This document shows positions 17,290 to 53,542 of a DNA stretch of 64,000 nt, piece after piece. Location: the NCBI RefSeq assembly GCF_964204645.1, contig NC_134034.1, positions 7,576,962-7,640,961 of the forward strand. Direction: 5' to 3'. Source of the DNA: Tubulanus polymorphus (taxonomy: Eukaryota > Animalia > Nemertea). Under the pieces are notes generated by a model. It made no database searches, was not told the origin of the DNA, and worked only from the letters and a program-made list of their open reading frames with translations. A program made the translations under genes and the position numbers. Position 1 is the stretch's first letter. Every line of letters begins with the position of its first letter.

Positions 17290-17893
17290 ATTCCGGTCTC
17301 GCAGCCAAGCTTGTGGCCAAACAGTAGACAATTTCGCAGACGATGTTAAACGGAGAGCGAATGAATTGGAATGACCTGCACACGTGACGCTAAGTACGTT
17401 TATTGATGGTCTCTCCGCGGACATACGCAAAATTGTTTGGACGCAGATGCCAGAGGATCTGGACAAAGCCATCAAAATGGCTAGTAACGTAGTCCAGATG
17501 ATGAAAATGGATGGCCCTGGTATTCATCAAATCGAAACGGCCAACGCGGGGATGGACGAACTAAAAGAAAGAATTAATCAACTAGAGATTAGACAACGAA
17601 AGGGGGAGACGGTGGCACAGGAAAATCAAACTTTTACGGGAATACAACAACCATTTGGAGCGATGACATACGCGCGAAATGGAGCTACAAACAGTAGATT
17701 CCGTTACCCTACGTTTAGAGGGCGATGTTACAGGTGTAATATAATTGGACATATGGCTAGAAATTGCAGGGGACCTGCGAAATCCACTTTTGCAACGGAA
17801 AATAGAAACATCATTTGTTATCAATGTGGTTTACCTGGACATGTTAGCAGATATTGCCGTCGGAATACGAATCGACAACAACGGACTAATTAG
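17290..17893 (+). pseudogene. gag: Gag, N-terminally deleted, two CCHC zinc knuckles
   Basis: Capsid CTD-like SQACGQTVDNF...TFIDGL; CYRCNIIGHMARNC and CYQCGLPGHVSRYC; in-frame TGA at 17372. Confidence 0.85.
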
Positions 17894-21961: not shown

Positions 21962-22023
21962 GATATTTGCCACGCACCCAATAGTTGTTGCGAAGTTAAT
22001 TAAGGATAATAACAGAAATAATT

Positions 22024-28648: not shown

Positions 28649-31600
28649 TTAATGGCCATAAGGTAATGTTTTTATTCCATCACCCGAAATATATCTTTTA
28701 TCATCGAACGGATTTAAACTAGTTTTATCAACTTCATTAATGTACATCTCGTGATCTTCTGATCTTAAACAATTCATTTTATGTTTCATTACAATTGAGT
28801 AATATAAACACTTTATATAATCTTGAAATTCTATGTGTTTATCAACCACATGTTTTGTTATTCCTTTTAACTTTATAGCTTCATGATCTTTTGTTCTATA
28901 ACTATACATTTTACTTCTCATCCCAACAAATTCAATCATTTCATCGCCCCCTAATTCATCTTTAAATTTACCAGGAATTTTTTTATTATCATTGCTAAAT
29001 AGTTCATGATCTTTTGGATAATTGCTAAAGTCAAAATGATGTTTTAATGTTTTTAAATCTTTTGTTATGTCATTTGTCTTGATTTTTAGTATGTAACTGT
29101 CAGTATTCTTTAGGAATAATGAAAATCCACAATTAAATATACCAACTTCAGTTGTTAAAACATTAACATATTCTATAGGATTGTATATTTCAAATAAAAC
29201 TTTAACTTCTTCTGTTAGTTCATTTTCTACATGCGTTAATTGAAATACATTTGGTTTTTCCTTTCTAATATTAACTAACATATTAAATCCTAATGAATTG
29301 CATAATATATTTAATCCTGATATAGCAACTTTTCCTTTTTGTGTCAAAGATATAGTTTTCTGTTTTGTATAGTTTTTTGAACCATCTGCAGCATAGAATC
29401 CAATGAAGAACCATTTTCTTAAATTATCTTTTGCATTTAATACATAATCTGGTACTATCTTTTCTTTAGTTGAAGCATTACTTTTAACTATTGCATGAAT
29501 ATAGAATTCATCATTATATTTAATTGCAAAATCTTATTTACATGTATTCTATAAACTGCTGATGATTTCATAACATGTATGATTTTAAATGTTTTATTTG
29601 GATAAACTTCTTTACAGTATTTCTTTATTCTTTCTAATAATTTCAAATCTTGATTGCATAAACACCAACAATATTGAGTTTGATTAACATACTTATACAC
29701 ACCTGCTGAACCATCACGCATAAAAAATCATTTAATAAAATATTCTTTTTCTTCTAATGTTTCAGGTTCTGTGTTATAAATATTATAAATTATTTCATCA
29801 AATGACATATGATCCATTCTTTGGAAAAATATTTTATGTAATAATTCATCTCCAATTTTTATATCAGTTGGTTTTATTTCATCACTATTTTGTTTAATAT
29901 AACTATGATCTTCAGTAACATCAACGAATCCTAGTTTGGTTCTAACTCTATAGATTTTCTTATTTGTTTTATGCCTAATAATATTCTTTAATTTCTTCCA
30001 TCCATTTCTTGTCCAAGCATCCATTAATCCCTTTATTTGTATTAATTCTTTTTCACCATATGAAATATAAAGTTCATTTTGTTTTGGAATTATTTCTGAA
30101 ATTCTTCTTATCAATATTTGGTTATTGTATTTTGATTATATTGGGGTATCAGCTGTTACAGAATCAAAATATAATATTTCAATATGTTTTTCCCCAAAAA
30201 GTGGTTGTAAAACATTATAATAAAAATCATACATTAATAATTTTGATATTCCTAAAACAGTTGAACCAATGAATATAGGTTTATTAAATTTCATTGACGT
30301 TCTTTTTAAATTTACCGCTGTTTAATAATCTTCAAATCTTTTATTTCCTAAATGTCTAAGACTTGATTGTAAATGTCTCAATCGTTCAGAATTATTTACT
30401 AATTCAATATCATTTCTATTTCTAATATTTTCACATGTTTTTCCATAAAAAGTATTATTCATTAATTTAAAGAAATCTTCTTCAAAATCTGTTTTTGATA
30501 CGGTCCTCTGTTGAGTATCAAAATCTATATATTTCTCTAACCACTTCGATTGATTAAATTCAATATATCTATGTACTTTCTTTAATTTCATTCCTTGTTT
30601 TAGATAAAATTTAAACATTCTATAATGAACAATATAATTGTATTTATTATTTTGAGTAAGTATTAATTTTTCTGTAAAAACATGATCTTTCGGTTTTTAT
30701 TTTATTCTGGTATTCACTTAAATAACTATCATCTACGGCTAAATGTCCTGGGCAATATGGTAAGTTTCTTGTTTTAAACTTAATGTTATCAGTATATTCT
30801 AAATCAACTACAAAGAAATAACCAATTGGTGCTTCATCTTCTAAACTCATAATTGCGCTTTCCCAATTAGTTTTATCATCATTTTCAACTTCTGTTAATA
30901 TAAAATTTTTATATGGTTGGTTGCATCATTTCCCAACCATATAAATTATTAGCGTCAATATATAATAATTTATATTCATCATTTGCTTTAAAATACCTAT
31001 CTCCCATAACACCACTAATTCCACCTCTAATTGATTTTTTAAATAATAAAACCATGTCTGGTTCTTTTAATAAATCTAATTCTACATTTGTATATTTTAA
31101 ACCACATTGCCAGGTTAAACCAGGACTTGAATAACAATAACAGGGATCAACATTAAAATGATTCAAATTAAATTCTCTAAATTTTTCAAATATATCAGCC
31201 AATATCATAAAATCTGATTTTAAATATAAATCTACTAATTCACCATGATTTTTTATCTTAAAATGATTCCAAATATTTAATGTTCTATTAAACACTTCAT
31301 CTTTCACATACTCCTCTTTTAATTGATCATAAAATTGTTCTTTTAATAATTCTGTTACATAAAAATCATCATGTGTTTTATAAAATGAATAAGGAATTGC
31401 ACCTTTAAATCTCAATAATTTAAACTCTTCATTTGGATAATAATGTCGAGTTATTATAAAATCAACTAAACTTTTTGCTAAATTATCTAATGAACTTGCT
31501 AAAAATCTATAAGAATCTAAAAATCTAATGCAACCAAATTGAAATTAAATTTGATTTTCAGATGTCTTAGCTAATAGTTCAAAATCATATTTTCTTACAT

Positions 31601-34413: not shown

Positions 34414-34785
34414 AGTAATAGGGGTTTAGTTGTTCTAGATCAAAGGTCGAACGGTCGAGAAATTTTCCAAATGTGAAAATAACAATAATTTCAACTTGAA
34501 TTAGTCGCGCACACTCCTAATTCAAGTAGAAATTATTATTATTTCACATTTGGAAAATTTCTCAACCATTCAACCTTTAACCTAGAACAACAAAACCCCT
34601 ATTACTCTTAAAATAATCATATACATGAATAACATGTAAATTGACGGATTATTCAATATAAAAGTGTGAGCTCTTATAGAATAGATAGATAGATATATTT
34701 TAAACCATATTTCAATATTTATATTTGTATGAGTTAGATTTTTAAACATTAAAAGTGTTAGTAAAGTGTGATTGAAATAATTCAT
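34414..34785. repeat. Left TIR with 193-bp terminal hairpin (34414-34606)
   Basis: Self-complementary arms; inverted match to 53244-53542. Confidence 0.92.
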
Positions 34786-34838
34786 ATTTAAATCATTGAA
34801 CTTCTAAAATCAATTTAAAAAAAAAATTTAGTATTAAA

Positions 34839-37800
34839 ATGGAAGCAAGTACTACTGTTCACCATGTAATATCAATATAGATAAATCCCAAAAATCAAGA
34901 CACAATAAAACTAAAACACATTTAGAGAATAAATTGAAATTAGAATATGAAGATGATATATTAGAAACTAAATTAGATGAATTAAAGAATGAAAAAGAAA
35001 CATACAAATGTGATACATGTAATCAATCATTCAGTGATAAAAGATATTATAAAGAACATTTAAAATCTAAAAGTCATATTAGAAATAAGGATAATGATAT
35101 TTTAGGTGAAGATTATTTTGATAAAGATAATGATAAGAAACAGAAGACAATTAAAAGTATAAACAAGAAAATTAATTTTAGAAAATTATTTGACGCCTGG
35201 GAAAAAAATGTAGAATTTCTGGGCTAAGCTAATGTGGAATTGCAAATTTGAAATCGAAGTTTTAAGAAATTTGGGGAATGATGAGATTTGGCGATTTGGT
35301 AGATGATACAGGTCTTCGACTCTAGTAGTGGTTTAAATTTTTTTATTGAAAATTCTCAATAATTGATCGCGAACTTGCGACCGACTTCATTTACTTATGC
35401 CTCTAAGCTGGTCTGCAACTTCATAGCCTCCATGGATGAAGAAAGAGCTCCTCTGATGTCTGCTTCATCATGACTTCGATCATATCGTGTGGCCTAGCCA
35501 GCCGGCCCGGTCCCCGGGCCCGGGCCACGGGTTTGGCTGTCACTCGATATCCTAGAGTCTTGAGTCTGGGTGGGTTGAAGTAGACATTGTCATTTAAAAT
35601 AACATGCTTATGTTGTTCTGTATGAATTACCCGTGTGTCATGTATGTTGTATTAATTTATTTTAAAATTTGTATTTATTGAATTTGGGAATTTTATCCCG
35701 GAATTTCAATGTAATAAGGATCAATAAAGAATTGAATTGAATTGTCACCTAATACACATGCCATCAGAGGACACGGAGCCGTATAAGACAGCTATGCTAT
35801 TATAAATTGCTAATCTCACGAAACTTGCATACTCCTAATATCAAACATATTTTCACAAACGATTGAATATTGAAATTATATGTTTACACATTTTCATATT
35901 GACCGCTTGTAGCCGCTGATGAAATTCACGCCGGCCCTACACACATCGTAGATAGCTTCGTCATTCCACCGGCATGCCCACGTCAGGGTCTGACTTTTAT
36001 ATCAGACTTCCGCATCGTGTATACATCCGCCATTTAACCGAATAATCCGATTTACTTATCATTTCTATTTATGCCTGCCGCTTCTGATACAATCATACAT
36101 CCTTTACTATTACAATACGTCTTCTAATGATATTCAATGCAATATAACATTTCGACGTTCAAATATAGGTCATTATATAATCACAGGAAGCCATTCTACA
36201 TCTATGTCAATAATATTTTGCCAGATAGCTTGTTTGTGTACACATAAACCTGTGACGTTTTGCACATCGATTTACGGCTGTCGTTTGTAAAATGACGCTG
36301 AATGGTAAGCATTGTTTAGGTTTCATAATGGTAACGTTTTATAAGGCGTCAAAAAATAAATTTAACAATAAAAGACCATACATGGAAGATGTAAGAAAAT
36401 ATAGTAATTTATTGGATAATAAAAAAGATATAGAGATAACCGAAGCATTTAAAAGTGATATTGGCCCAGCAGCTATCGAGTTTAAATTTCATAAAGGAAA
36501 AACGTTAGAAGAAAATAAAAAACATTTAGAAAATATGAAAGAAATAATGAAAATAATAACTGATGTTGAATATCCTAAAATAAGTATTTCATCAAAATTT
36601 AAATTCATAAAATCTGAAGATAAACCAATATATAATATAAATTCTCATTCACAACATATTATATCTAAACAACATATAGATGATAAATTAGATAAATGTT
36701 ATAATGAAGTAAAAACTAAAATAGAAGAGAAATATTTTGAAGGATCTGGTTTAATATTTGATGAAATAATATTTATGACTTTACATGTTTATAACACAAA
36801 ATATAATAAGTTAACTAAATCAAAACCCATAGATGAAAATAATGTATCATATTATAAAGAACCAGATATTGAAGCATCGAGTTATATTAAACTACCATTT
36901 AAAACTAATGCTGTTATAAATGTACAAAATGAAGATGATAAATGTTTTCTATGGGCTATAATTAGTTGCTTACATCCTGCAACTGATAATATTTGTAGAT
37001 TAACTCATTATAAACCATTTGAAAATAATTATAAGATAGATAAGTATCCTGTTAGAATTAAAAATATCCAAAAAATAGAAAGAGATAATAATATAAAGAT
37101 AAATGTATTTTATTTAATCAAATTACCAAATACAAAAGGTAACAATATAAAACATTATACATTAGACCCTTTATATCTATCAAAAGATTATGATTCAAAT
37201 GGTGTTATAGATATATTATATTATGAGAATCATTATATGTGGATTAAAAGAATTGATTCATTTTTTAAATCAGAAAATTATTTTGATAATAAAATATATC
37301 TATGTAGAAAATGTTTACATAAATTCAGAACTGAAAGTGCATTATTAAATCATAAACAATTATGTGAAAATCATGATTATTGTAAATTAGTTTTACCAAA
37401 TGAAAAGGATAAAATATTAGAATTCAAAAAATATGATTACAAAAATAAAGTACCATTTGTAATATATGGAGATTTCGAATCATTAAATAAAGAATTAACT
37501 GATCAAGATAGAAAAGAAATATATTATAAAAGAAAGAAATTAAATTCTAATGAAAATGATTTTTCAGATGAACCACCAATAACAAATACTATTAAAAAGA
37601 TTCATCAATCAGCTGCAGCTTTCGGGTTATATATTAAATCTGATTATCCAGAACTAATTAAAAGTGAATATTATCATTACAGAAATGAAAATGTTATCAA
37701 TCATTTTTGTGACTTATTTATTGAATATGAAATAAGATTTAGTAAATTATTGAATAAAAATATAGAAATTATAATGACAGAAGAAGATAAAGAAGAATTT

Positions 37801-39939
37801 GCGTTTGCAGATAAAAAAGTAAGAGACCATGATCATTTGAACGGAAAGTACTTACAAGCTAAGAAAATTAATTTTGTACCAGTTATATTTCATAATCTAT
37901 CAGGATATGATGCACATTTATTTATCAAACAGTTATGTCATAAAATAGAAGAAATCAATAATGAAATAGACATATTAAATTCAAATAGATCAAAAGATAA
38001 AATACCAACTTATAAATTTAGAATGTTAGCTAAAACATCTGAGAATTATATATCATTCCAATTTGGTTGCCTAAGATTTATAGATTCATATAGATTTTTA
38101 AATAGTTCATTAGATAACTTATCAAAATCATTAGTTGATGATGAATTAAAAATATTAAAGCAACACTACCCAAATATTGATGATTTTCAATTAATGAGAT
38201 ATAAAGGCGCAATTCCATATTCATTTTATAAATCACATAATGATTTTAACATAACTGAATTATTAAAAGAACAATTCTATGATGAATTAAAAAATGAATA
38301 TGTTAAAGATGAAGTATATAATAGAACATTGAATATTTGGAATCATTTTAGAATGAAAAATCATGGGCAATTAGTAGATTTATATCTAAAATCAGATGTA
38401 TTATTATTAACCGATATATTCGAAAGGTTTAGAGATGTAAACCTAAAATATTTCAATATTGATCCTTGTCATTGTTATTCATCACCAGGTTTAACATGGG
38501 ATTGTGGATTAAAATTTACAGATATAAAAATGGATTTGTTAACAAATATAGATCAATTATTATTATTTGAAAAATCTATAAGAGGAGGTGTTTCAGGTGT
38601 ATTAGGTGATAGATATTTCAATGTAAATGATAACCCCGGATATAAGTTATTATACATAGATGCAAATAATTTGTATGGTTGGGCAATGATGGAACCACAA
38701 CCTTATGGAGTATTTGAAATTACTGAAGTTTTACAGTATGAAAATAATGATAAATTTGATTGGAAGAAAAGAATTCTAGATATTGCAGATGATTCAGAGA
38801 CTGGTTACTTTTTTGTTGTAGATTTAGAATATCCTGAACATATTAAATCTAAATCTAGAAATCTAGCATACTGTCCAGAACATAAAACTGTAACTCATGA
38901 AGAATTATCAAATTATCAAAAAAGAATTAAACCCGAAAATCATATTCATACAGAAAAGTTAATGGTAACTCAAGAAGATAAATATAATTATGTAGTACAT
39001 TATAGAATGTTAAAGTTTTATCTAAAACAAGGAATGATCCTAAAAGAAGTACATAGTTATATTTCATTCAGTCAATCTAAGTGGTTAGAAAAATATATAG
39101 ATTTTAACACCAAACAGAGAACTGAAGCTAAAACTGATTTCGAGAAAGATTTCTTCAAGTTAATGAATAATGCATTCTATGGTAAGACTTGTGAAAATAT
39201 TAGAAATAGAAATGATATTGAGTTAGTTAGTAATGGTAAAAGGATAAGGCATTTACAATCATATCCTAAGTTTTTAGGTAACAGAATATTTGATGAAAAT
39301 TTAGCTGCAGTTAAAATGAGAAGAAAATCTATGAAATTTAATAAACCAATTTATGTTGGTGCTTCAGTTTTAGAATTATCAAAATTACTAATGTATGAAT
39401 TCTATTATAATGTATTACAACCACTTTTTGGAGAAAAACATATAGAAATCTTATATTTTGATACTGACAGTTACATATTAAAGATAAAAACTAATAACAT
39501 AACTGATGATTTAAAAACATTAAAACATCAGTTTGATTTTAGTAACTATCCTAAAGATCATGAATTGTTTAGCAATGATAATAAAAAAGTTCCAGGGAAG
39601 TTTAAGGATGAATTAGGTGGTGAAGAAATGATTGAATTCATTGGTATTAGATCTAAAATGTATTCATATAAAACTAAAGAACATGAAGCTAAAAAGTTAA
39701 AAGGAATAACCAAAAGTGTAGTAGAAAAGAATATTCATTTCAAAGATTACATCAATTGTATATTCAATGAAGAAGTTAGAAAACATAAGATGAAATGTTT
39801 AAGATCTGAAGATCATGAAATGTTTATTGAAGAAATTGAAAAGATTAGTCTAAACCCATTTGATGATAAAAGATATATTTTAGATGATGGAATTCATACA
39901 GTTGCTTATGGTAATTTAGATGAATACTTAAAATTTTAA
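34839..39939 (+). pseudogene. pPolB (C2H2 fingers, OTU-like DDKCFLW..HY region, exonuclease, EndoVII-like insert, polymerase), interrupted by an insertion at ~35170-36351
   Basis: Open from 36352 to 39939 with YGDFES, FHNLSGYDAH, YIDANNLYG, NNAFYGKT and YFDTDS; N-terminus matches the copy A start. Confidence 0.95.
35191..36351. mobile_element. Unclassified ~1.16-kb insertion in PolB
   Basis: Flanks contiguous in copy A; short inverted ends tgacgcct/aggcgtca; contains a LINE-tail-like aataaagaattgaattgaattg; no clear TSD. Confidence 0.65.
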
Positions 39940-40019
39940 AGAGAAGAAACAAAAGAGAACGAGATAATGAAAAGAATTCTAACGTGTTAATCAAATTTTA
40001 ATAAAAATATGTATTATAA

Positions 40020-40437
40020 ATGGAGAGTAAACAAGCGCGCAGTGAGAACAACAAATCATTTCTAGATAGAATAAAAGATACTTCAAATGTCAAATCAGTA
40101 GATTATAAATTTAAGAAGTTAAAAGAATTAATAATTCATAAGAAATGTCTAATTACAAATATTGATACAGTTACTAACAAATATGGAGATAAATTAGTTA
40201 TACACTTAGAATATGAAGGATTAAAAGGAAATACATATAAATTCAGAACATATTTACAGGAAATTAAAAGAAATTAAATTAGGATTAAAAGGAAATACAT
40301 ATAAATTCAGAACATATTTACCGAATAGATTTCATAGATTATCAAGTGAAGATCTAGAAGAATTATGTTCTGGAGATTTCTATTTCGTATGCAAAGGTAA
40401 GAATGAAAAAGGTCACCATGAAATAGATTTCGAATAA
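40020..40437 (+). pseudogene. Small conserved protein disrupted by a ~40-bp duplication
   Basis: Homolog of 2256; aggattaaaaggaaatacatataaattcagaacatattta repeated. Confidence 0.75.
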
Positions 40438-40451
40438 AATATGTAAAATAA

Positions 40452-41204
40452 ATGGTAGAACTAAAAGAATACAGAATATTTGTTGATTCAAGAAAACTTA
40501 CAAATTATAAATCTCATAATTTACTTATACAATTGGATAGAGAATTCAAGAATTGTGTTGATTTAAAATTAGTTAATATAAGTTTATGTAATTCTTTTCA
40601 TAATATATCGAATAAAAGTCTTGATCATTTAGCTTTTAAAATTTATGTAAGAAATTTGAATAAATAGTTTCATCTTTATCTAAAACCAGGATTATATAAT
40701 TTAGAAACATTAGCGCAAGAAATTAATGAAAGAGCTCGTTTAAAAATGGGCTCAGATCTCGATTTGAAATTAAATTTATCAAAAATGATAGTTCGAATAA
40801 AATAAGAATAAAGTTAACTAATGAACAACATAGATTTTTAGTAAGAAAACCTTTAGCTAAACTGTTTGGAATTCTTCCGGATAGAAATTATTCAAGTATC
40901 GAAACTTATACAAATATAATGACTTTTACACACTTTTATATTTATTGCAATTTAATTAATCCTACAAAAACATTTGAAGCAACTAAAGATACAATTTGTA
41001 ATTCTAGTATATTAAATATTTTACCATTAAAAATGTTAAACAATTTGGAACTCAAATAAATTATAATTTAGCTGAATGTGATTTTAAACCTTGTATTCCT
41101 CAATTTGATAATTTTAAATTAGAAATAAGAAATCACAATGGTTATTTAATTGATTTGAATAACTTTCCTGTAATTTATGAATTAGTTATAAGATGTAGAG
41201 GGTA
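40452..41204 (+). pseudogene. Minor capsid (penton-like single jelly-roll) protein, disrupted
   Basis: VDSR...NSFHNI, PGLYN, FYIYCNLI, EIRNHNGYLIDLNN pattern typical of PLV minor capsids. Confidence 0.65.
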
Positions 41205-41220
41205 ATTTTTCACTATATAA

Positions 41221-41568
41221 ATGAATATAACTGTAGGACCGAGTATATGTTTTGGGTTTGATTTTATACGTGAGAAAGAAATGAAATTTAACATTACTGA
41301 TGTAATTACACATATTAAAAATATTGCATTTTCCAATGAAACAACATTAGAGTATGAAAAAACAATAGATAAAGAAACTTTAAATGTAGAAAAGATTACT
41401 AATTTAATTAGAGAATCTTTAAGATTTTATGAATTAGATGAAGATTTTATCATCGATGATATTAAAAAAATAATAATTGAAATATATACAAATGAAACTA
41501 GTAATGAAATAAATGTTGATTTAATCATAAATAAGTTAACTAAATATTTTGATGTAGTAATTTTTTGA
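41221..41568 (+). CDS. Hypothetical protein
   Basis: 115-aa ORF with TAAATG start in the gene array. Confidence 0.55.
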   Translation: MNITVGPSICFGFDFIREKEMKFNITDVITHIKNIAFSNETTLEYEKTIDKETLNVEKITNLIRESLRFYELDEDFIIDDIKKIIIEIYTNETSNEINVDLIINKLTKYFDVVIF

Positions 41569-41576
41569 TAAATAAA

Positions 41577-41794
41577 TGAGTGATAATAAGTGGATAATAA
41601 CTGGATTATATAATGGAGCATTACTATCAGTTGGAACTGTTGGTTATTCAATGGTATTAAAAAAGTATTCAAAATGGAAAGTGTTAATGTTGATAGATTT
41701 GATATAAATGATATTTTAAAATTAACATTAGCAGTTACTTTATCTAATTTAACTATTGATTATTTGGAAAAACAAAAATATATTCCTCCCATAT
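41577..41794 (+). pseudogene. Small hydrophobic protein, -1 frameshift in an A-run
   Basis: TAAATG start; two hydrophobic segments once the frame is repaired. Confidence 0.5.
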
Positions 41795-41820
41795 AAATAC
41801 ATAATTATTTTACTAAATAA

Positions 41821-42243
41821 ATGGCTTCTGCAGTTATAACTATTATAGGATCAGCAATTGTTAATGCTTTAGCATTTACTGGTGGCGGTTATTTATTTAA
41901 GCATATTGATAAAAATAGTTCATTAGGAGAACGAAAAAGATATAACTTAGCATTAGAAAAATACAATAAAGCAGCAGAAGAATATAGAGAAAAGAAGCAA
42001 AACTATATGGATTATATTAACAAGGAATTATATGATCAGAAGATTTCACATAGAGATTTTCAATCAGTTGATGATGCAATGTGTTTATATAACGCGGTAA
42101 CCAATAAAGAAAAATCACATCTACATAAACCTAATTTATCAGATTGTTATACCCCAAGTAAAGAACAACAGAAATATGAAATAATTTGGATTTTAGGTGG
42201 AACAGTTATTGTTATATTTGTTGCTTATAAGTTTACTAATTAG
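41821..42243 (+). CDS. Conserved membrane/coiled-coil protein
   Basis: Hydrophobic N- and C-termini; homolog in copy B. Confidence 0.7.
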   Translation: MASAVITIIGSAIVNALAFTGGGYLFKHIDKNSSLGERKRYNLALEKYNKAAEEYREKKQNYMDYINKELYDQKISHRDFQSVDDAMCLYNAVTNKEKSHLHKPNLSDCYTPSKEQQKYEIIWILGGTVIVIFVAYKFTN

Positions 42244-42263
42244 TAATTTTTTTTGCTAAATAA

Positions 42264-42689
42264 GTGGATGATAATATTGATATTATTCCTCATGATATAA
42301 ATAAAACTAAATTAAAAATATATTTAGAAAAACAAATATTAGAATTTGAAAGTGACTTAAAGATAAAGAAGAAAAAATATTTAAAAAGTAAAATTATATA
42401 TTATCTTATTATCAGTGGTTCGGTTACAATTAGTTCTGTAATAACATTTCTAGCAATATTCTCACCATTAACACCTTTAGCTATATCAATTGGTATATTA
42501 GGATTAAGTTCAAGTGTTTTAACTGGTATAAGTTCAAAATTAAATATAAAAAGTAATAAAGAAAAAATTAAAACTAATATAAAAGAAATTAATAAATTAA
42601 AGAATACACTAGATTATATAATAAGTTTAAATGGCCATATAACAGTTGAAGAACAAGATAAATTATTAAAAGAATTAGTTAATTATTAA
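42264..42689 (+). CDS. Two-TM protein
   Basis: Paired hydrophobic helices; homolog in copy B starts with ATG. Confidence 0.65.
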   Translation: MDDNIDIIPHDINKTKLKIYLEKQILEFESDLKIKKKKYLKSKIIYYLIISGSVTISSVITFLAIFSPLTPLAISIGILGLSSSVLTGISSKLNIKSNKEKIKTNIKEINKLKNTLDYIISLNGHITVEEQDKLLKELVNY

Positions 42690-42705
42690 TTTTTCAATTA
42701 TATAA

Positions 42706-44004
42706 ATGGCAGATAGTTTTCCAAAAGCTTTCCAATATAATAAATCAATTAAATATAATATTCCAGCAATAGATTTTAATTAAGATATTACATATAGAAA
42801 TGAAGTTTTAGATTCATTAATTGATTTACATATTTATGTTACTGAAAGTAATAATTTTCATGTAAAGATGGAAAATATATTTCATGTGTATACAATTAAT
42901 TTCAAAAATTTAAATGAGGCAAAACAATGGTTATTAAAATCTAATATGAAGTATTGGCAGAACCAATTAAATTTTGCTGTTTATTGCAGAACAACAGGAT
43001 GTGGAATTAGTTGGAATGATCATTTAAACAAACCAAGTTTACCATTGATGTTATCACTTTTTAGATTTCATACATATTTTCAAATAAAATTAATATTAGA
43101 TGAATTAGAATGTCCTTTACCAGGTTCAAAATATTTTAAAGAATTGAATAATAATAATAATTTTTCTAAGTTTTATAAAATATGTAATGAATTTAATATT
43201 AATTCAAATAAAGATTTTAGATCAAAAATTGGAACGATGGGTGGATTAGGAATATTATGTACTAAAGAATTTGGAAAAGTAATGACAAATTCAGATATAA
43301 GAACACTAAATTGGAATGAATTACCAAAATATTATAATAATATACAACAAAAAAACAATAATGGTTGGGTTTATTTCATTTTAGAAAATAGTGAAGGTTT
43401 TACAAAATCAGATATACAAAGAATAAATCAATCTATTAGAACTTATTTGATATGTATTTTAGGTGCGCAAGTTGAAACAAGATCCCCAATAATTGGAAAT
43501 GCGCAGAAACAATTCAAAGTATTATTTGAAGATTCCATTCATAATGATAAAAATAGATCGATTCCAGAAAACATTGTAAGATATCAAAATTATTTAGATA
43601 AATTACATATTAGATTAAATTATTGTATAGGCCCTAATCTATTAATTATTTCTAATGAAGTATAAAAGATGGGAAATATAATTGGTTATAATAATCTAAT
43701 TAAAACTGCAACAATAAATAATTCATTTGGATTAAATGATATAAATAAAAAGATTATTATTGCTCCAAAATTAATGGAAGGTGAAAAAAATAAAAAATAT
43801 ATTCAATCAACAGAAACTAAAACTAAGAATATTAAATTGGATAATGATTCTAAAATAAAAGATTACAATACATCAGAAAATATTAAAACTGATAATGTTC
43901 AACATGAAATAATTAAACTAAATGATGATAATAAATCCCATGAAAATACTAAATTAGCTATAACTTGTATAGGAATTGCAATCGGAGGAATATTATATCT
44001 TTAA
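42706..44004 (+). pseudogene. Conserved Polinton protein (YWQNQLNFAVYC family), internal stops
   Basis: Homolog in copy A. Confidence 0.7.
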
Positions 44005-44026
44005 TTTTAATTTTTTTATTATGTAA

Positions 44027-45474
44027 ATGGCAGAAGGTGGAGAAGATATTGGAATTGATACTTTAGATGAACCTGGTATAAGTGATGAACAACCACCTGA
44101 TTTTGATGAAACAAGTTTTAGTAATGATAATAAAACAGAATATAATACTAATTTACCAGAAGTTGTTCCTGGTTATAAAGCCCCGTCAACAGATGAATAT
44201 ATTAGAGGAGCTAAATCGAGGATATATTGAAAATGAAGATCCAGAAAAAACAAAAAAAGAATTAAAATATAATGAAATTACTCATGAATTTAAACCGATG
44301 TTAAAAATCTGGTTTCAATGTAACAAATAAAGCTATGGAATATTTAGTCGAAGGTTTAAAATATTCAAATGGTGATTATTATTGGCATTTGAAAGATGAC
44401 TATTATTTTAAGATTTCTTCTAATAAAAGTCTCGATAAAATAATAACAAAATCAACTTTAATTAAATTAGAACAATCTAGAATTAAGAAAATCATTAATG
44501 ATGTTATAACTGATGTTACAGAACGAGAGATAAAACTAAATAGAAAAGATTTTAATAAAGAAAATGTTAAATTTTTGAAAATAATTAATGAAAATTTAAG
44601 ACCAAAACAAATTCCTAAAGAAGCTGATAATTCCAAAACTAGTAAAGTTAAATCAACCGAAGTTCAAACTGAAAAACTTTTACAAAATGGGTTACTTGAT
44701 GCAACAGATCAAGAATTAGAAGATTTAAATATATTTTCTGATGAAGCAATTAGAGAAATTATTAGTATAAGAAATGAAGCTGATAAAATTGCACATAATA
44801 AAAGTATAAGAGATATTAAAATTAGTACTTTAGAAAAAGAATTAACTGATAAAAATAAAGAGATAGAACAACTAAAGTATGATTTAGACCATCAAGCAAT
44901 TGGTGAAATGGAATATAGGCAAAAAGAATTACGTTTAGAAAAAGAAATTGATAATTTAAAAGATAATTTAGAAGTACTGAAAGGTGAAAGAGATACATTA
45001 TTAAAAGAATATGGTAATAATTTTAAAAGATTAAAAGATGTTTTTAAAGATTTGTTGATAAAACCAGATTCTAAAATATCATTGAAAGATAGAATAAAAT
45101 TATTATTTAAATTAGAAGGAATAACAATTCTTTCAATTCTAACATCTGTAACTATGTTATTTACAACAATTGGTTTAGCTTTGTCAAATGCTTTAAAATC
45201 TACTCCTACTCCCAATAAACCAGATAAACCTCCAGATAATAATTCTATACAAGATAAAGTTAAGGATGGTTTAAAGAAATTAGCAAAATATTTATGGGAA
45301 CTATCTAAAAAATCTGCTGCAGCATTACCAGGAATTATTGCATCGATTGTTGGTTTTATATTGAAATCTGCAGGAAACATTATTAACTTTGCTGCTGAAC
45401 ATATTATTTTATTTTTAATTACAGTTGTAAGTGCTATTATTTTTGGATTAGTAAACATGATAAAAAATAAATAA
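44027..45474 (+). pseudogene. Coiled-coil protein with C-terminal membrane helices, N-terminus frameshifted
   Basis: ORF 44335-45474 plus upstream fragments; sits before the MCP. Confidence 0.65.
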
Positions 45475-45494
45475 TTAATTTTTTTGTTAAATAA

Positions 45495-46742
45495 ATGAGT
45501 GGGAGTTATATCAATCCTTCTAAGAATCATAGAATATCTAATGCTATTAAAGCAGAAAGATCACATCATATAATTACTCATTACCCTTCTAATATTAATC
45601 CTGATGAAACTTTATATGTTAGAATTCCGAGATTAACACAAAATACTTTTTTTGTTCCAAATAGTATTTATTTATCAGCCGATATAAAAGTAACCGGTAA
45701 TAATAATAATTATGTTGTTGATAATGTTGGAAGATATTTGATTAAAAAATTAACAATAAAGATTGGTCCGGAAACAGTTTTCTCATTAGATGATTATAAT
45801 TTATTTATGCATTATAAAGATTTATGGTTAACTAAAGAAAATAGAAATAATATGATATTTCAAGGCATCCAATCAGAAAACCAAAATAAATTAAGATCAG
45901 AAGCACATAATGCAATATTAACCAATGCTATAGATAAATTGATAAAAAGTATTTATGGAAGCAAATATAAAATTCCATTAGACTTTGAATTGATAAATAA
46001 TAATGCGCCTTTATATAAATACGCAATTCAAGAAGATGTTATATTTGAGATAACATTTGCTCCTGTTAATGAAATTGTAAAATCTAGCGTTAATAAAGAT
46101 ATGGGTTATAAATTATCAAATATATGTTTAGAATATGATACAGTAACTGATGAAAATATTTCAAGTATAATTCAAACTCAATACAATCAAGGATTTTCAT
46201 TATTATATGATTATATTGATAAATTTAAAACTGTAACTATTAATGCAAATGATGAAATAATTAATGAGAATATTAACTTCCCAAGAAGATCTATTAAAGG
46301 TATATTAATATTTTTTACCATTGCAACATATACTAATGGTGCAATAAATGTTGATAATTATTATAATCCTGAAATAACAAAAGTAGAAATAACTATCGAA
46401 GGAATAGCAAATAAAATATTTTGTCAAGGAATGAGAATGATTGATCAATGGCCAGAAATTAGAAAACATTTTATTTATGAAAAAGTGAAATCATCTGAAA
46501 ATTGTAATATTAATCAAATTGATTATTATACCGGTAATAAATATGCATTATGGTTAGATTTTAGAACAACAGAGGATAATTCATTACATGGTTCTGGAAA
46601 AAAACTACAGAACACTAAAGATGGAATACAATTATTCATGACAAAGAATAAAGGAATCAAAAATTTTAAAATGCACATTTATATTATATCTGACGCACAA
46701 TTAAATATTGTAAATCCTCAATTGAATAGTGTTATGTATTAA
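45495..46742 (+). CDS. Major capsid protein (double jelly-roll)
   Basis: Intact 415-aa beta-rich ORF, NVGRYLIKKLTIKIG motif, Polinton context. Confidence 0.78.
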   Translation: MSGSYINPSKNHRISNAIKAERSHHIITHYPSNINPDETLYVRIPRLTQNTFFVPNSIYLSADIKVTGNNNNYVVDNVGRYLIKKLTIKIGPETVFSLDDYNLFMHYKDLWLTKENRNNMIFQGIQSENQNKLRSEAHNAILTNAIDKLIKSIYGSKYKIPLDFELINNNAPLYKYAIQEDVIFEITFAPVNEIVKSSVNKDMGYKLSNICLEYDTVTDENISSIIQTQYNQGFSLLYDYIDKFKTVTINANDEIINENINFPRRSIKGILIFFTIATYTNGAINVDNYYNPEITKVEITIEGIANKIFCQGMRMIDQWPEIRKHFIYEKVKSSENCNINQIDYYTGNKYALWLDFRTTEDNSLHGSGKKLQNTKDGIQLFMTKNKGIKNFKMHIYIISDAQLNIVNPQLNSVMY

Positions 46743-46774
46743 AATTTTAACTTAAATAAAAATATATATAATAA

Positions 46775-47716
46775 ATGGAAGGTGGAATATATGAAATACA
46801 AACTCCAAGTGAAATGATATCAGGTATATATTATATATTACCTTATGATGAATACATTAAGTATTTTGGAGATTACTTTAATCAATTCAAATATAGAATA
46901 AGTAAAATAAAAGATAATATTGAAACTAAAATAGAAAATAATATTGAAACTAAAATAGAAGATAAGAATGATATTGAATATAAAATAGAAGATAATATTG
47001 AAACTAAAATAGAAGATAGTAATAATATTGAAACTAAAATAGAAGATGTAACAGCATCTAAATCTTATAATATACCCTCTACATATGATATTGAATCAAA
47101 AAAAGATTATTATAATCCAAAATATTGTGATGTATGTAAGAAATATATATCATATAAAAATTGGGCATCACATAAGAAATCAAAGAAACATATAGAAAAA
47201 GAAAAGAATAATAATGATAATAATATATCAGTGAGTAATATAAAAGATAATGTTAACCCAATTGAAACTAATGATACCATATATAATATAACAGATAATG
47301 TAATAAATAATGTTAACCCAATTGAAACTAATGATAATGATATAACAGATAATGAAATAATTGATGATTCTAAAAAACATTGTAACATTTGTAATTTAGA
47401 TATTTCTAAAAGTAATTTTTCTAATCATAAAAAATCTAAGGGGCACATAGAAAATGAAAAAGAATTAATATGTGATTATTGTAATAAAAAAATTGAACTT
47501 GTTGATAAAATTACTCATTATAAATCAAAATCACATCTAATTAATGTTTATAAAGATGTGGGTATGTTACCATTGTTAGATGAACCAAAGAAATATATCA
47601 AATATTTTAATCCTGATACTAAACAATATTATATATTCTTTAAGTTGTTATTTGATAAATTATTAGCTTATGCAGAAGATAATCCTGACCAAATATATAA
47701 ATTAGCGTATAAATGA
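46775..47716 (+). CDS. C2H2 zinc-finger protein with NIETKIED repeats
   Basis: Three CxxC...HxKSKxH motifs; tandem coding repeats. Confidence 0.75.
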   Translation: MEGGIYEIQTPSEMISGIYYILPYDEYIKYFGDYFNQFKYRISKIKDNIETKIENNIETKIEDKNDIEYKIEDNIETKIEDSNNIETKIEDVTASKSYNIPSTYDIESKKDYYNPKYCDVCKKYISYKNWASHKKSKKHIEKEKNNNDNNISVSNIKDNVNPIETNDTIYNITDNVINNVNPIETNDNDITDNEIIDDSKKHCNICNLDISKSNFSNHKKSKGHIENEKELICDYCNKKIELVDKITHYKSKSHLINVYKDVGMLPLLDEPKKYIKYFNPDTKQYYIFFKLLFDKLLAYAEDNPDQIYKLAYK

Positions 47717-48151
47717 TACCTAGATTTATTTGATTTAATAAATGATTTTGAATTTGATTTTGATGGTGATAATTCTTAGGATTACTTTGAAAAATTAAGA
47801 ATAAAAGCTGGATTAAGTGATGATGAACGTAGAATGAAGGGTGAAATAGAATTAATAAATATGCCAAAGACTTATGGAGAATTTGATATACACGAAGATG
47901 ATTTTATAAATGTATTAAAAACAAAATTAGAATAATTATTAGAAAACTATTTATCTATCTTTAAAGATATTTATATATCTATGCGCTAGACGTATGAGTA
48001 AGAAAGTAAGAATCCAAGAATCCTTGCCAAGAAATATAAATTATAAAAATAAATTATAAACATAAATTATAAATATAAACTATAAACATAAATTATAAAC
48101 ATAGTTTTAATATATAATTTATTCATTATTATATATTTCATTTAATAATTC

Positions 48152-48255
48152 ATATTTCTATGGACTAGACGTACGTAAGAATCCAAGATTCTTGCCAAGA
48201 AAGTAAAAAGGTAAGAATCCAAGAATTCTTACGTACGTCTAGTATATAGAAATAT
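48152..48255. terminator. Inverted repeat between convergent gene blocks
   Basis: Perfect 19-bp arms actagacgtacgtaagaat / attcttacgtacgtctagt. Confidence 0.45.
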
Positions 48256-48357
48256 AAATTAGTTTCTATAATATTCCAAATTAGGATTTTTTTTTATAAA
48301 TTTATATTCATAGGGAAATTGTAGTCTCAGTAATAATTTTGAACCTTTATTATTCTT

Positions 48358-48900
48358 TTATTTATTCATATATTCATCATGTAATTCAGTAGGTATAATT
48401 TGATTTTCTTCCAATGATTGTTGCATAGATTTTTTATCTTTGTTATAAAATAAAACAAGAAATCTTATATTCTCCCTAAAGTCTTTAACAATTGAATTAT
48501 ATTTTTGATTTAAAACCCATGTTGTTATCCCAAAATGTCTCCCAGAGAAAGCTAAATAACATAACTCACTTTCTCTCACTTTTGAATCATGTAAATTTGC
48601 GCAATCATCTATAATGAATAATGTATTTGATCCTTTATAAATATCAATTGCTATTTTAATACAATTATCTAAATTTTCTTTTACTGTTTTAGGATCTAAT
48701 ATAATAAACTTTTTTATCTTAACTATATCTCTGTTATATGTTTTATTCATTTCATAAGTAGGACAAAATAATATTATATTATCAAAATGATTCTTATAAA
48801 TAGTTTCTAACAAATCTAATATGAAATGTGTTTTACCACAGTTTGTTACCCCAGTAACTAACATATTATGCGGTTCAAATATAAATAAATCTTTAGTCAT
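48358..48900 (-). CDS. A32/FtsK-like packaging ATPase (premature stop near C-terminus)
   Basis: GVTNCGKT, LFIIDD, GRH, VLNQ motifs. Confidence 0.9.
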   Translation of the reverse strand: MTKDLFIFEPHNMLVTGVTNCGKTHFILDLLETIYKNHFDNIILFCPTYEMNKTYNRDIVKIKKFIILDPKTVKENLDNCIKIAIDIYKGSNTLFIIDDCANLHDSKVRESELCYLAFSGRHFGITTWVLNQKYNSIVKDFRENIRFLVLFYNKDKKSMQQSLEENQIIPTELHDEYMNK

Positions 48901-49970
48901 TTATTCTTGTAATTTTACTAGATAAAATCCATTCATTAAATTTATCATCATATCCTTTATATTTCACCAAAGAATACTTTTTCCTTTAAGAGTTTTTGTT
49001 TTCAATACTTTTTCTATGTTGTATTCTATTTCATCTGGATTTGGTACAAGTGATAATTCTTGTTCATAGAAATAACCTAATATTTCTTCATCTTTTAGAT
49101 CTTCTAATTTATAAACAAATGGTTTAGTTAATATTATCTTTTTAATCTTGAATATTTCTTCTGTAAAATTTGGGGTATAACCTTTATAAAATGTTTTTCG
49201 ATATTTAGATATTCTAACGTGTTGTCCAATTTTAAATTTAGGTTCTCCGAAATCATGTGTAACAAATGCTCCATATAAATTATTCCAAACAATTTCTGAA
49301 TTATCTTCTTTTCTAGCTTGTATAGGTTTCATATTTATAGAACTATGTTTAGAATTATTATAACTAAATCATCTAACACATCGATGTATTTATATGTTTC
49401 ATTAGCAGTAAAATATTTCCACATTCTAGTTTTCAATGTTTTATTAAATCTTTCTATAATAGATGCTTTTTTATCTGAGTGTGTTGAAAAATAATCTACA
49501 TCGTTATCAGATAATAGTTTTTTAAAATGTTTGTTATAAAATTCTTTACCTTCATCAAATTGTATCTTATCTGGAATAGCTTCTTTAAATATTGATTTAA
49601 AAGCATTTGTTACTTCTATAACAGTTTTATTTTTGATTGGAATTGACCATGCGTATCTACTGAATATGTCTATAACATTTAATATCCAGAAATATCCTTT
49701 GTTGTGTTCTTCTAAGTTCTTCATGTCAATTAAATCTGCTTGCCATTGTTGATCGATATATGAAACCATAACTTTTCTTATTAAATAAGTTTTATCCATT
49801 TTCTTGTGGATTTGATATGTTGGTTGATTTTGTAACCATGATTTCAATTCACTATATTTTATATTTTCATTATCAGATTTAATTTTATCCCATAATTCTG
49901 AAACGTTAGAATATGATACTTCACTTTCTGGGTTATAATATAACTCTCTTAAATATTGTTCTTTTTTCAT
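48893..49970 (-). pseudogene. rve integrase with chromodomain, frameshifted
   Basis: WQADL, IQFDEGKEF and IIERFNKT catalytic D-D-E. Confidence 0.92.
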
Positions 49971-50079
49971 CTTATTTTAATCCATTAATAATAATTTAGA
50001 TTTAGTTTCAATGACTTTATGATTTGACTTATTTTCTGGTATAATAGGTTTATTATCATCGGAATCATTATTGTTATAA

Positions 50080-50343
50080 TCAGATTTGAATTTTATATAT
50101 TACACCGGATAATATAATAACTGTTACTAATCCAATTGTAATATATAAGTAATTATTTCTTCCACTATTAGAAGAATCAGATGGATTATTATTTGAATCA
50201 ATATCAGATAAAGTCTGTGATTCATTTATATCAGTTAATTTCTTTTTCTTAGCTTTTTTTACTTCTGAAGATCTTTTACCTAATTCTCTTGCCCATTTAA
50301 TTTGTTTCTCGAATCTAGGCTTTTTCTTAACGCCATCACTCAT
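50080..50343 (-). CDS. Small basic protein with C-terminal TM
   Basis: Homologous remnant in copy A (~4440-4830). Confidence 0.6.
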   Translation of the reverse strand: MSDGVKKKPRFEKQIKWARELGKRSSEVKKAKKKKLTDINESQTLSDIDSNNNPSDSSNSGRNNYLYITIGLVTVIILSGVIYKIQI

Positions 50344-50944
50344 TTATTTTACTTAATTTTTGTTCTGATTTATTTCCTGTTTCGACGTTTGGTTGTAGTA
50401 CATCTGTTTCGTTCTTACCTGATTTATATTCCATAGGCTTGATATTCGAAAATGTTATGACACCAGTAGAAATTAATGTCATAACCGATCCTAATTGAAA
50501 TGAAGCATAACCAACCCATTTTTGTAATTCAGTCATAACTAAGTAGTCATTTTTCAAATCACTATATAATTTATTTTCATCATCAATTGGTATTAACTGG
50601 TTACATAACTTAGAATAACATTTGACAATACCATCTGAAATAGAATCATTTATTCTAGCTAATCTAGCTTCTTCATAAATCTTAAAATATTTTATTACTT
50701 TATCTGGTTTCATAGCATCTAATTCTTGAAAAGTAATGATCTTAGTTAAAAATTGTTTACACTTTCCGCTAGCAATCAGTAGCTCGAGATGGTGTTTACA
50801 ATATAAGTAGTATTCATAATCTATATTACAATTAACTTGAATATTATTTTCAATTTTGGTTGGAATATCCTTATTATCACTAATACCTAAATCATCTAAT
50901 GTTTTTTCAATATCAATACTATTCTTACTCGATTTCTTTGACAT
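50336..50944 (-). CDS. Conserved Polinton hypothetical protein
   Basis: Homolog at 4921-5427. Confidence 0.7.
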   Translation of the reverse strand: MSKKSSKNSIDIEKTLDDLGISDNKDIPTKIENNIQVNCNIDYEYYLYCKHHLELLIASGKCKQFLTKIITFQELDAMKPDKVIKYFKIYEEARLARINDSISDGIVKCYSKLCNQLIPIDDENKLYSDLKNDYLVMTELQKWVGYASFQLGSVMTLISTGVITFSNIKPMEYKSGKNETDVLQPNVETGNKSEQKLSKINE

Positions 50945-51245
50945 TTATATTAGAGAAATTTGATAAGAAAAATATTATAAGTATTATAAGATGATACCAG
51001 TATCTCTTTAGATTAATACTAGCTTAGTTAAAGGTAAAGAATTTTAGTATTAGTTATTGTTTTTTTAGTATTTTTTATTTGTGATATAAAGTATTCTTTT
51101 TTGAAAAGAAAATATTAAAAAAACCTTAACTAATACTAGTTAGTTGAAGATGTGTAATTTTTAATATATTTTATTTGAATTCTATTTGATATCTCACTAC
51201 TTTTGTAAATCTATTAGGAGCAGTAATTATAACTGTCCAGATAAG

Positions 51246-51923
51246 TCATTTCGGATCCTTGATATCAAATTCCTCAACATATTGTTCATTATTTGGATTA
51301 TTGTTCCATTGATCAATAAATTTCTTTGCCTTTGTTAACTGTTCTAAATATAGCTGTAAATCTAGTTTATTAGATTTGATTTGATTTTCTTTCTTTTCTA
51401 AAGGCCTTAAATTTTTCCAACCCCAAATAAGTTTTTTATTGAATTCATCATTCATGTTAAATTTAGATATTGGTACCACGTGATCAATATGGTAATAATC
51501 CCCATAATTATCTATATTCATTTTATCATCGAATTGAAATATAATCCATGATTTGAGAAATTCATCTGAACAACCCAACAAATTAGATAGTGTTTGTGAA
51601 TGTGTTTCTTTACTGAATAATTGTGTTAATCTAGATCTTAAGCATTGTTTCAATCTAAAATTAAGATCTGTTTGATATCTTACTCTCATATATTCTGCCA
51701 TATAATAATTATAATGTTCTATATTATCTTCTCGATATTGTTTGGTATATAGTTTAAAACAAGTTTTACAGCAATATTGAAAACTATCTTTGCTAATCTT
51801 ACACTTACTAAGTTCTGTTAAAGCTAATTTATCTAATTCACACTTAGAACACTTCTTGTAGTATATATTTATAACGCCGGTGTTATTTGTAATATTGATA
51901 ATTTGTGGTTGTTCTGGTTCCAT
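51246..51923 (-). CDS. HNH endonuclease
   Basis: CSKC/CKTC, HIDHVVPISKF...WKNLRPLEKKENQIKSN. Confidence 0.85.
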   Translation of the reverse strand: MEPEQPQIINITNNTGVINIYYKKCSKCELDKLALTELSKCKISKDSFQYCCKTCFKLYTKQYREDNIEHYNYYMAEYMRVRYQTDLNFRLKQCLRSRLTQLFSKETHSQTLSNLLGCSDEFLKSWIIFQFDDKMNIDNYGDYYHIDHVVPISKFNMNDEFNKKLIWGWKNLRPLEKKENQIKSNKLDLQLYLEQLTKAKKFIDQWNNNPNNEQYVEEFDIKDPK

Positions 51924-52057
51924 TTATTATACGTATTTTTTTTACTAAATTGGTTAATATTTTAGAATCCTCTTCCATATCTTCGACCAACGTCATCCTT
52001 TTTCATTCCTCGCTGCTTTTGATAAGTTGTTTCGATTCCTTGATATCTAAATCATAC

Positions 52058-52515
52058 CAGTTACAATACCCGCGTCACATGCGGGCATTCAGGCGCGCTT
52101 TTGCTTAATGCGCATGCGTTAATCATAATTATATATTCATTCTATAAATTCTGTAAAATAGAAACAACCGACATAAAATATCAAAATGTGTTCGCATTAG
52201 GCAAAAGCGCGCATACAGGCGCGCTTTTGCTTAATGCGCATGCGCTAATCATAATTATATATTCATTCTGTAAATAGAAACAACCGACATGAAATATCTA
52301 AATCATACCACTAGGCAAGACCGGGCATTCAGGCCCGGTTTGGATCAATGCGCATGCGCTAATCATAATTATATATTCATTATGTAAATTCTGTAAAATA
52401 GAAACGACCGACATAAAATATCAAAACGTGTTCGCATTAGGCAAGACCGGGCATTCAGGCCCGGTTTGGATCAATGCGCATGCGCTAATCATAATAGAAA
52501 CGACTGAACATAAAA
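52058..52515. repeat. Subterminal tandem repeat (~110-130-bp units, 4 copies) with GCGCATGCG palindromes
   Basis: aatgcgcatgcg(c/t)taatcataat occurs four times. Confidence 0.85.
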
Positions 52516-53243
52516 ATTCACCAAACAGATTTACACAATACATTATACAAGTTATTCAGTTGTTTCTTCCAATACATCATTTGATTTCTATAAATACAAT
52601 TTATAATTACAAACATTTTTTCAATTGCTGGTAAATATTTAACTACATCAACAAATGTTAAACTTAATCATTGGAGTCTCAATGTTTTTGAAATTCTTAT
52701 ATATAGTTTCTTCTTCGATCTTTTGGTGATTCTTGTGTTTCTTGTGCCAATTTCTATTGGTTCGATATCCATTGCTGTTGATTCCTCAGTCAGAAAGAGT
52801 ATCTTGAGTTTCTCTATCACTTCTTGATGCGTATGGCGTTTTATTAATCTAAAAGATATTAGTGGCAACTCTAGCCATCTAAAAGATATACTAAATACAC
52901 TTAAATATATCTAAAGGTTTCATATTTAATGGCCCCAATGACTACAAAAAACAGTACTTACATTTAGATTTAGAATTGTAAACTATAAACTCCTAATTGC
53001 GTTTCTAGAGAGAATATCCTAAGCGTTATGTTACAGCGTCTATTCAGTTCCGGTGCAATTTCGAGCCACGTCATCTGGTTCCGGTTCTAGAATGTTCTAC
53101 GCGTTTGTAGTATTATGACTCATATGTCTCGGCGTCATAGTAACAGCTGTAACAGCTGTGAATTTATAGATTTATTCCATAGCTCTTTACATGGAATGTA
53201 TATAGTCTCAAATAGAATCATGTTCTAGTATAAACAGCTATGT

Positions 53244-53542
53244 ATTATTTCAATCACACTTTTAATGTTTAAAAATCTAACTCATACAAATATAAATATT
53301 GAAATAATGTTGTAAATATATCTATATATCTATTCTATAAGAGCTAACACTTTTATATTGAATAATCTGTCAATTAAAATGTTATTCATTTATATTTTAT
53401 TCATGTATATGAATATTTTAAGAGTAATAGGGGTTTAGTTGTTCTAGGTTAAAGGTTGAACGGTTGAGAAATTTTCCAAATGTGAAATAATAATAATTTC
53501 TACTTGAATTAGGAGTGTGCGCGACTAATTCAAGTAGAAATT
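53244..53542. repeat. Right TIR of copy C, outer hairpin arm mostly lost
   Basis: Reverse complement of ~34490-34785. Confidence 0.9.

Follow-up and report, generated by a model that had tools for sequence, protein, structure and literature searches.

TAAATG gene starts in a Polinton clade resemble a poxvirus late promoter and suggest transcription by a nucleocytovirus RNA polymerase

We analyzed a stretch of 64,000 nucleotides from Tubulanus polymorphus (contig NC_134034.1, positions 7,576,962 to 7,640,961; hereafter the window), which holds a decayed Polinton whose genes mostly begin with TAAATG. The element occupies positions 34414-53542 of the window and is bounded by terminal inverted repeats (TIRs). 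It carries a protein-primed PolB (pPolB), a double jelly-roll capsid, an A32 ATPase, an RVE integrase, an HNH-like gene, and some ten further conserved genes of no known function. The pPolB, integrase, ATPase, and capsid place it among the Polintons/Mavericks (Polintoviricetes sensu lato). Polinton termini are inverted repeats starting with AG and are accompanied by a 6-bp target duplication. Here, the left TIR (34414-34786, forward strand) matched the truncated right TIR (53239-53542, reverse strand) at 87%, 371 reads with unrelated flanks ended at 34414, and the 6-bp duplication was seen at a 2-kb derivative (55400-57439). The window holds at least three further Polinton copies in addition to this derivative, and every Polinton copy in it is broken. 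Of 12.9 million reads in a DNA run labelled as the same species, 94,332 mapped to 18 kb here, mostly at 90-99% identity, and the family is therefore high-copy in its host.

The forward-strand genes begin with PolB (34839-39939), which starts with TAAAATG at 34839 and contains an insertion of about 1.2 kb (approximately 35161-36350). N-termini of intact relatives mapped to 34838-35173 and resumed at 36355, and reads skipped 35160-36351. PolB of the window itself had no Pfam match, and DNA_pol_B_2 was found in PolB of close relatives. Next come a broken small gene (40017-40431, TAAATG start at 40020) and a frameshifted putative minor capsid gene (40449-41205, start at 40452) with 48-64% identity to an intact gene of relative L003 (565-1329). 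We infer the latter assignment, as its single-sequence model reached a predicted local distance difference test (pLDDT) score of only 39, too poor for a fold search. They are followed by a gene of no assigned function (41218-41568, start at 41221), a frameshifted small hydrophobic gene (41573-41796, start at 41576), a conserved 140-aa gene (41818-42243, start at 41821; L003 homologue 75%), and a conserved gene with a deviant start at 42264 (42261-42689). A broken conserved gene of about 440 aa (42703-44004, start at 42706; 76% to L003 2996-4324) and a broken coiled-coil/membrane protein gene (44024-45474, start at 44027) precede the intact 415-aa major capsid gene (45495-46742). The double jelly-roll model of this capsid (pLDDT 83) matched capsids of SGIV, PBCV-1, and mavirus in Foldseek with E-values from 4e-17 to 1e-11. 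A zinc-finger/repeat protein (46772-47716, start at 46775) ends the forward-strand series.

On the reverse strand lie an A32-type packaging ATPase with a premature stop (48292-48903, TAAATG start at 48900; Pfam Pox_A32, 1e-11) and an RVE integrase in pieces (48899-49970; Pfam rve, 5e-10). The integrase starts with TAAGATG in the window; among intact relatives it ends in a chromo-like domain and starts with TAAATG (L001). Farther along are a small membrane-anchored gene (50080-50346, start at 50343), a conserved gene of about 200 aa (50336-50947, start at 50944; L003 homologue 63%), and an HNH-like endonuclease gene (51246-51926, start at 51923). The last has relatives of 30-37% identity in viral contigs L080 and L081, and its L001 homologue gave a weak Pfam HNH match (E 0.0055). 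Pfam detected no RNA polymerase among 16 element open reading frames (ORFs). The Ulp1/adenain cysteine protease of adintoviruses and classical Polintons had no Pfam match in the same 16 ORFs or in six L001 and L003 proteins.

A first-pass annotation of this DNA had listed 14 TAAATG sites at gene starts and likened them to the poxvirus late promoter. All 14 are present, with two coordinates off by one (correctly 41576 and 47713). The site at 47713 overlaps the stop of the gene starting at 46775 and has only six codons open, so its use as a start was not validated. Leaving out this site and the GTG start at 42264, TAAATG was found at 13 of 15 ATG starts, whereas only 20 of the remaining 407 ATGs on coding strands had it (4.9%; Fisher p = 3e-14). 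Composition and ORF definition were insufficient to account for this, as the first ATGs of ORFs in shuffled DNA were TAAATG in 7.0% of 2137 cases. The signal is positional, since the window-wide count of TAAATG (130 versus 111 ± 11 expected) scarcely exceeded chance. A run of T4 or A4 preceded 12 of the 13 starts, and genes were tightly packed, with eight of nine measured tandem spacers at 7-32 nt and the ninth at 80 nt. In none of the 13 cases is TAA the stop codon of a preceding gene; the frame upstream is open for at most 20 codons. The exceptions also read as first described: the true start of PolB reads TAAAATG, the TAAGATG of the integrase recurs in a copy at 4430, and 42264 reads TAAGTG where the homologous start at 28095 (reverse strand) reads TAAATG. 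A baculovirus TAAG reading of two deviant starts was rejected because their homologues carry TAAATG. The enrichment is thus confirmed and is stronger than first described.

The motif forms part of a two-part layout, of which the capsid gene provides a typical example (45472-45497, forward strand): a T-run, a short spacer, and TAAATG over the start codon. Across the clade of relatives described below, the T-run lies 8-12 nt upstream of TAAATG, and the spacer between them measures about 7-8 nt. Ts peak between -12 and -15, and nearly every one of 45 starts has T at -12. Upstream runs of T4 or A4 occurred at 27 of 32 clade starts but at only 34 of 116 TAAATG sites that are not starts (p = 3e-11). 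The T peak together with A at -6 and -4 separated true starts from the 116 non-start sites (p from 1e-6 to 3e-11). According to passages of PMC5294985, the vaccinia late promoter has a T-containing core followed, after a spacer of 5-7 bp, by TAAAT(G/A), which lies across the start site. Judged against this published description rather than poxvirus DNA, the clade layout matches the vaccinia late promoter.

A capsid alignment yielded related loci, 40 from metagenomes and 2 from a genome collection. The window element and L001-L014 (capsids 51-75% identical) formed one clade in a midpoint-rooted capsid tree with support of 98/93; the tree excluded four loci that were too short and L033-L042. In L001-L014, 32 of 37 homology-validated starts were TAAATG against a background of 137/2204 (6.2%), and curation dropped one antisense ORF (32/36). 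GC content in the clade ranged from 20 to 44%, and TAAATG was retained at the loci with 40-44% GC (L006 and L007; three of four listed ORFs each). Outgroup elements had TAAATG at none of 31 (clade B) and none of 17 (clade C) curated starts, 0/48 together. Curation of clade B removed five mis-started ORFs and added six by hand (30 to 31 starts), and that of clade C mostly removed frameshift fragments (34 to 17 starts); the counts before curation were 0/30 and 0/34, and TAA was at zero in both clades before and after. Clade-wide retention and the outgroup zero identify TAAATG as a clade trait under selection rather than a product of composition. Six of seven head-to-head gene pairs in the clade, representing about four independent cases, had TAAATG at both ends of a 19-30-nt spacer. 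Such spacers leave no space for ordinary promoters and leaders, and they exclude stop-start coupling there.

TAAATG is also contrary to the usual context for translation. A preference for A or G at -3 was reported in all 47 eukaryotes surveyed by Nakagawa et al. (PMC2241899). A purine occupied this position at only 3 of 36 clade starts versus 28/31 and 16/17 outgroup starts (44/48). Judged against this survey and the outgroups, TAAATG with its T at -3 is not a translation signal. A trans-splice acceptor was considered and rejected, as no AG lies ahead of the ATG.

The neighbouring outgroup clade (L015-L020, L022, and L023) displayed a different signal. Here, with starts that were partly hand-curated, 25 of 31 starts had TATA no more than 18 nt ahead of the ATG, versus 110 of 1181 background sites (9%), and a T-rich patch was found 10-15 nt upstream in 22 of 26. 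The African swine fever virus (ASFV) late promoter has TATTT at -15 to -11 and TATATA at the start site (passages of PMC5294985). The T-run and TATA of this clade appear ASFV-late-like, hinting that helpers may have been switched. Among splice-donor words in clade B, GTAAG was depleted (3 versus 12.8) and GTGAG was not. An apparent depletion of AATAAA in clade B was gone after a junction control.

In 36 kb of coding strand, the polyadenylation word AATAAA was not depleted (110 versus 106 expected; 41 versus 40 in the window), amounting to 3-4 per kb. TTTTTNT was depleted (10 versus 30 expected, z = -6), and TTTTT was the most depleted of 920 five-mers. With AATAAA kept and T-runs avoided, a viral polymerase stopping at T-runs fits better than nuclear processing.

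These features recall several known systems. Like mavirus and the type-4 endogenous mavirus-like elements (EMALE04), the element is an integrating small DNA virus with pPolB, an RVE integrase, and a helper-type late promoter motif on its genes, and in both systems the motif varies between clades. In Cafeteria burkhardae, the late motif of Cafeteria roenbergensis virus (CroV) marks the reactivable type of EMALE, with other motifs on other types (passages of PMC10945749). The present element differs in having a Polinton-type capsid, TAAATG instead of the CroV motif, and a probable animal host. Its 415-aa capsid groups with Polinton-type capsids, including one from a mollusc (P0103), and is only about 10% identical to that of mavirus, so by capsid lineage it is not a virophage. 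Vaccinia late promoters share the T-rich core, the short spacer, TAAAT overlapping the ATG, and tolerance of TAAA variants (passages of PMC5294985, PMC6211774, and PMC4542343). Unlike in vaccinia, the clade motif stands at about 90% of genes, replication genes of relatives included, with a spacer of about 7-8 nt.

The entomopoxvirus-associated polinton-like viruses (PLVs) AHEV_PLV1/2 and CBEV_PLV1 have been proposed as poxvirus hyperparasites (PMC11296320). Compared by this description only, they differ in having a cysteine protease and no RVE integrase. The term 'promoter' has no match in the text of PMC11296320, which gives no promoter analysis of those PLVs. The yeast linear plasmids pGKL1/2 combine pPolB with a TAAAN initiator and poly(A) leaders made by slippage (passages of PMC6211774). 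However, these plasmids lack a capsid gene and supply an RNA polymerase and a capping enzyme of their own, neither of which the Polinton element has.

The first-pass annotation had also credited the family with an intein of the nucleocytoplasmic large DNA virus (NCLDV) type. This held for a divergent Polinton copy in the window, where a decayed intein lies in PolB motif C (29105-30162, reverse strand), but not for the element itself, whose PolB has an intact motif C and no intein. PolB of the divergent copy starts with TAAATG at 33711. The intein occupies the motif-C site used by PolB inteins of non-pox giant viruses, and it is most similar to Polinton inteins (62% and 47-50%) and next to those of giant viruses (38-43%). 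The intein documents ancient contact with nucleocytoviruses rather than with poxviruses. As a separate observation, the Polinton PolB inteins (29105-30162, P0268, and P0299) share a LAGLIDADG-type endonuclease and the giant-virus motif-C site.

Taken together, we consider it probable that the T-run and TAAATG of the clade form a late promoter that a co-infecting nucleocytovirus recognizes with its RNA polymerase, which would make the element a virophage-like parasite. Because the element has no RNA polymerase of its own, a nucleocytovirus probably acts as helper, in the way that CroV does for mavirus. The first transcribed nucleotide would lie within TAAAT, by analogy with vaccinia, whose late polymerase slips on three template Ts to produce an untemplated poly(A) leader (passages of PMC6211774). 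The same slippage would add a poly(A) leader to clade transcripts and put A at -3 of the mRNA, which would explain the anti-Kozak DNA context. All genes, including PolB and integrase of intact relatives, would stay silent until the helper brings late factors, and mavirus and EMALE04 with CroV offer a precedent for such late activation (passages of PMC10945749). Also in favor, the intein of the divergent copy shares its motif-C site with PolB inteins of giant viruses, the entomopoxvirus-associated PLVs offer a second precedent (PMC11296320), and a deoxynucleoside kinase gene of L003 (10340-10981; Pfam dNK, 2e-31) has a TAAATG start. The first-pass proposal is thus partly supported: the motif is near-universal, and neither composition nor ORF definition, Kozak context, or stop-start overlap accounts for it, which points to helper-virus transcription, with a poxvirus as one candidate helper and a defence role speculative.

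Several results weigh against this reading, whose weak part is the poxvirus label, which is not proven. PolB and integrase of the family depart from the motif, and the spacer of about 7-8 nt slightly exceeds the 5-7 quoted for vaccinia. AATAAA was mildly depleted under a looser shuffle (0.88, z = -2.3), TTTTTNT was not significantly depleted in the window copy alone (6 versus 7.1 expected), and the ORFs of a long terminal repeat (LTR) element were inadequate as a nuclear control (AATAAA 2 versus 4.5). Twenty invertebrate-iridovirus loci (L084, L203-L222) had TAAATG at 50 of 166 starts, and other giant viruses had it at 50 of 337 (15%) versus a background of 5.7%; the motif is therefore not pox-specific. 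The clade's upstream profile was uncorrelated with the profiles of iridoviruses (r = 0.18) and other giant viruses (r = 0.08). Viral contigs were scanned twice for the motif (120 and 115 loci, the top 5-7 of each inspected by eye) without revealing a virus with near-universal TAAATG, the best loci with at least 10 ORFs having 5/10 and 5/17. The second scan used the clade's own pattern, and giant-virus contig L267 partially matched that pattern but had been chosen by it. No capsid relatives were found in the viral contigs.

Within the probability we assign to a nucleocytovirus helper, about half belongs to a poxvirus-like virus, which fits the T-rich core best, and the rest to an iridovirus-like or other nucleocytovirus. 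An iridovirus-like contig (families MSV199, DUF3627, and DUF5757) surfaced in a scan for divergent TAAATG pairs. Starts of its type read strictly TAATAAATG, and their core, at -13 to -16, is rich in A, in contrast to the T-run at -12 of the clade. In its own right, this combination of strict TAATAAATG start and A-rich core is absent from the passages of the iridovirus promoter literature consulted.

An alternative is that TAAATG acts as an initiator for host RNA polymerase II, giving nearly leaderless mRNAs and an autonomous element. Some protists have very short 5' untranslated regions, and the high copy number of the family in its host speaks for frequent integration. Other Polintons are transcribed in animal tissue with no helper reported (Astyanax; passages of PMC8502044). 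We nevertheless find a host initiator unlikely: outgroup elements follow the Kozak rule, 3-4 sense-strand AATAAA per kb poorly suit nuclear 3' processing, and both the mollusc outgroup capsid (P0103) and, as a lead, an LTR element with a baculovirus-F-like env in the window suggest an animal host.

TAAATG could instead be a relic of past helper dependence, with copies in the host genome now spreading or decaying without a helper. Every copy in the window is broken, some starts have drifted, and the two scans of viral contigs found no helper. However, the motif was kept across 25-50% capsid divergence and 20-44% GC, implying selection until recently, and relatives L001 and L003 are intact; we regard a relic as quite improbable. 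Stop-start coupling, a polycistronic translation context, or AT-rich chance is largely refuted and very improbable, for although in L003 one TAA doubles as the stop codon of the preceding ORF and a further two starts follow such a stop at -6, no window TAA ends an upstream gene, head-to-head pairs lack an upstream gene altogether, shuffles give 7%, and T at -3 is anti-Kozak.

Other features of the window and its relatives deserve mention. The first 193 nt or so of the left TIR (34414-34606) fold into an imperfect hairpin (z = -20). Long, imperfect hairpins occur at TIR ends at 34414-34606, 55400-55799, and 57023-57439 (z = -20 and -22), and mismatches in their arms fall at matching places in two different subfamilies. 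They are reminiscent of hairpin telomeres, which are unexpected in a protein-primed element. The derivative at 55400-57439 is non-autonomous, has both termini and the 6-bp target duplication, and contains one 201-aa ORF without a Pfam family. A Ty3/gypsy LTR element (17447-24531) combines a chromodomain in its integrase with an intact env of 835 aa that is similar to baculovirus F proteins, which suggests an invertebrate host; the best full-length relatives of its Pol are only 36% identical and say little about the host, and Rfam gave no match. A capsid of this clade (cluster P0045) also appears in the annotation of short contigs from several Bartonella assemblies, probably through eukaryotic contamination.

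These findings bear on the autonomy of animal Polintons, which may be viruses in their own right or parasites that depend on a helper; in sequence, such dependence is best recognized by promoter mimicry. In the papers examined, promoter mimicry was described only for protist virophages, EMALEs, and transpovirons, and no title or abstract found in mostly open-access literature described TAAATG or a poxvirus-type late promoter in Polintons. A clade-wide poxvirus-type promoter suggests that poxvirus-like or iridovirus-like viruses of these hosts await sampling. More tentatively, and with considerable doubt, the clade may consist of invertebrate-integrating Polintons that are hyperparasitic on undiscovered poxvirus-like viruses, with lineages switching helpers by rewriting all of their promoters; the T-run plus TAAATG here would be of the poxvirus type and the T-run plus TATA of the neighbouring clade of the asfarvirus type. 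If true, the giant virus of each host could be predicted from start motifs, and endogenous defence of the virophage type would extend to animals.

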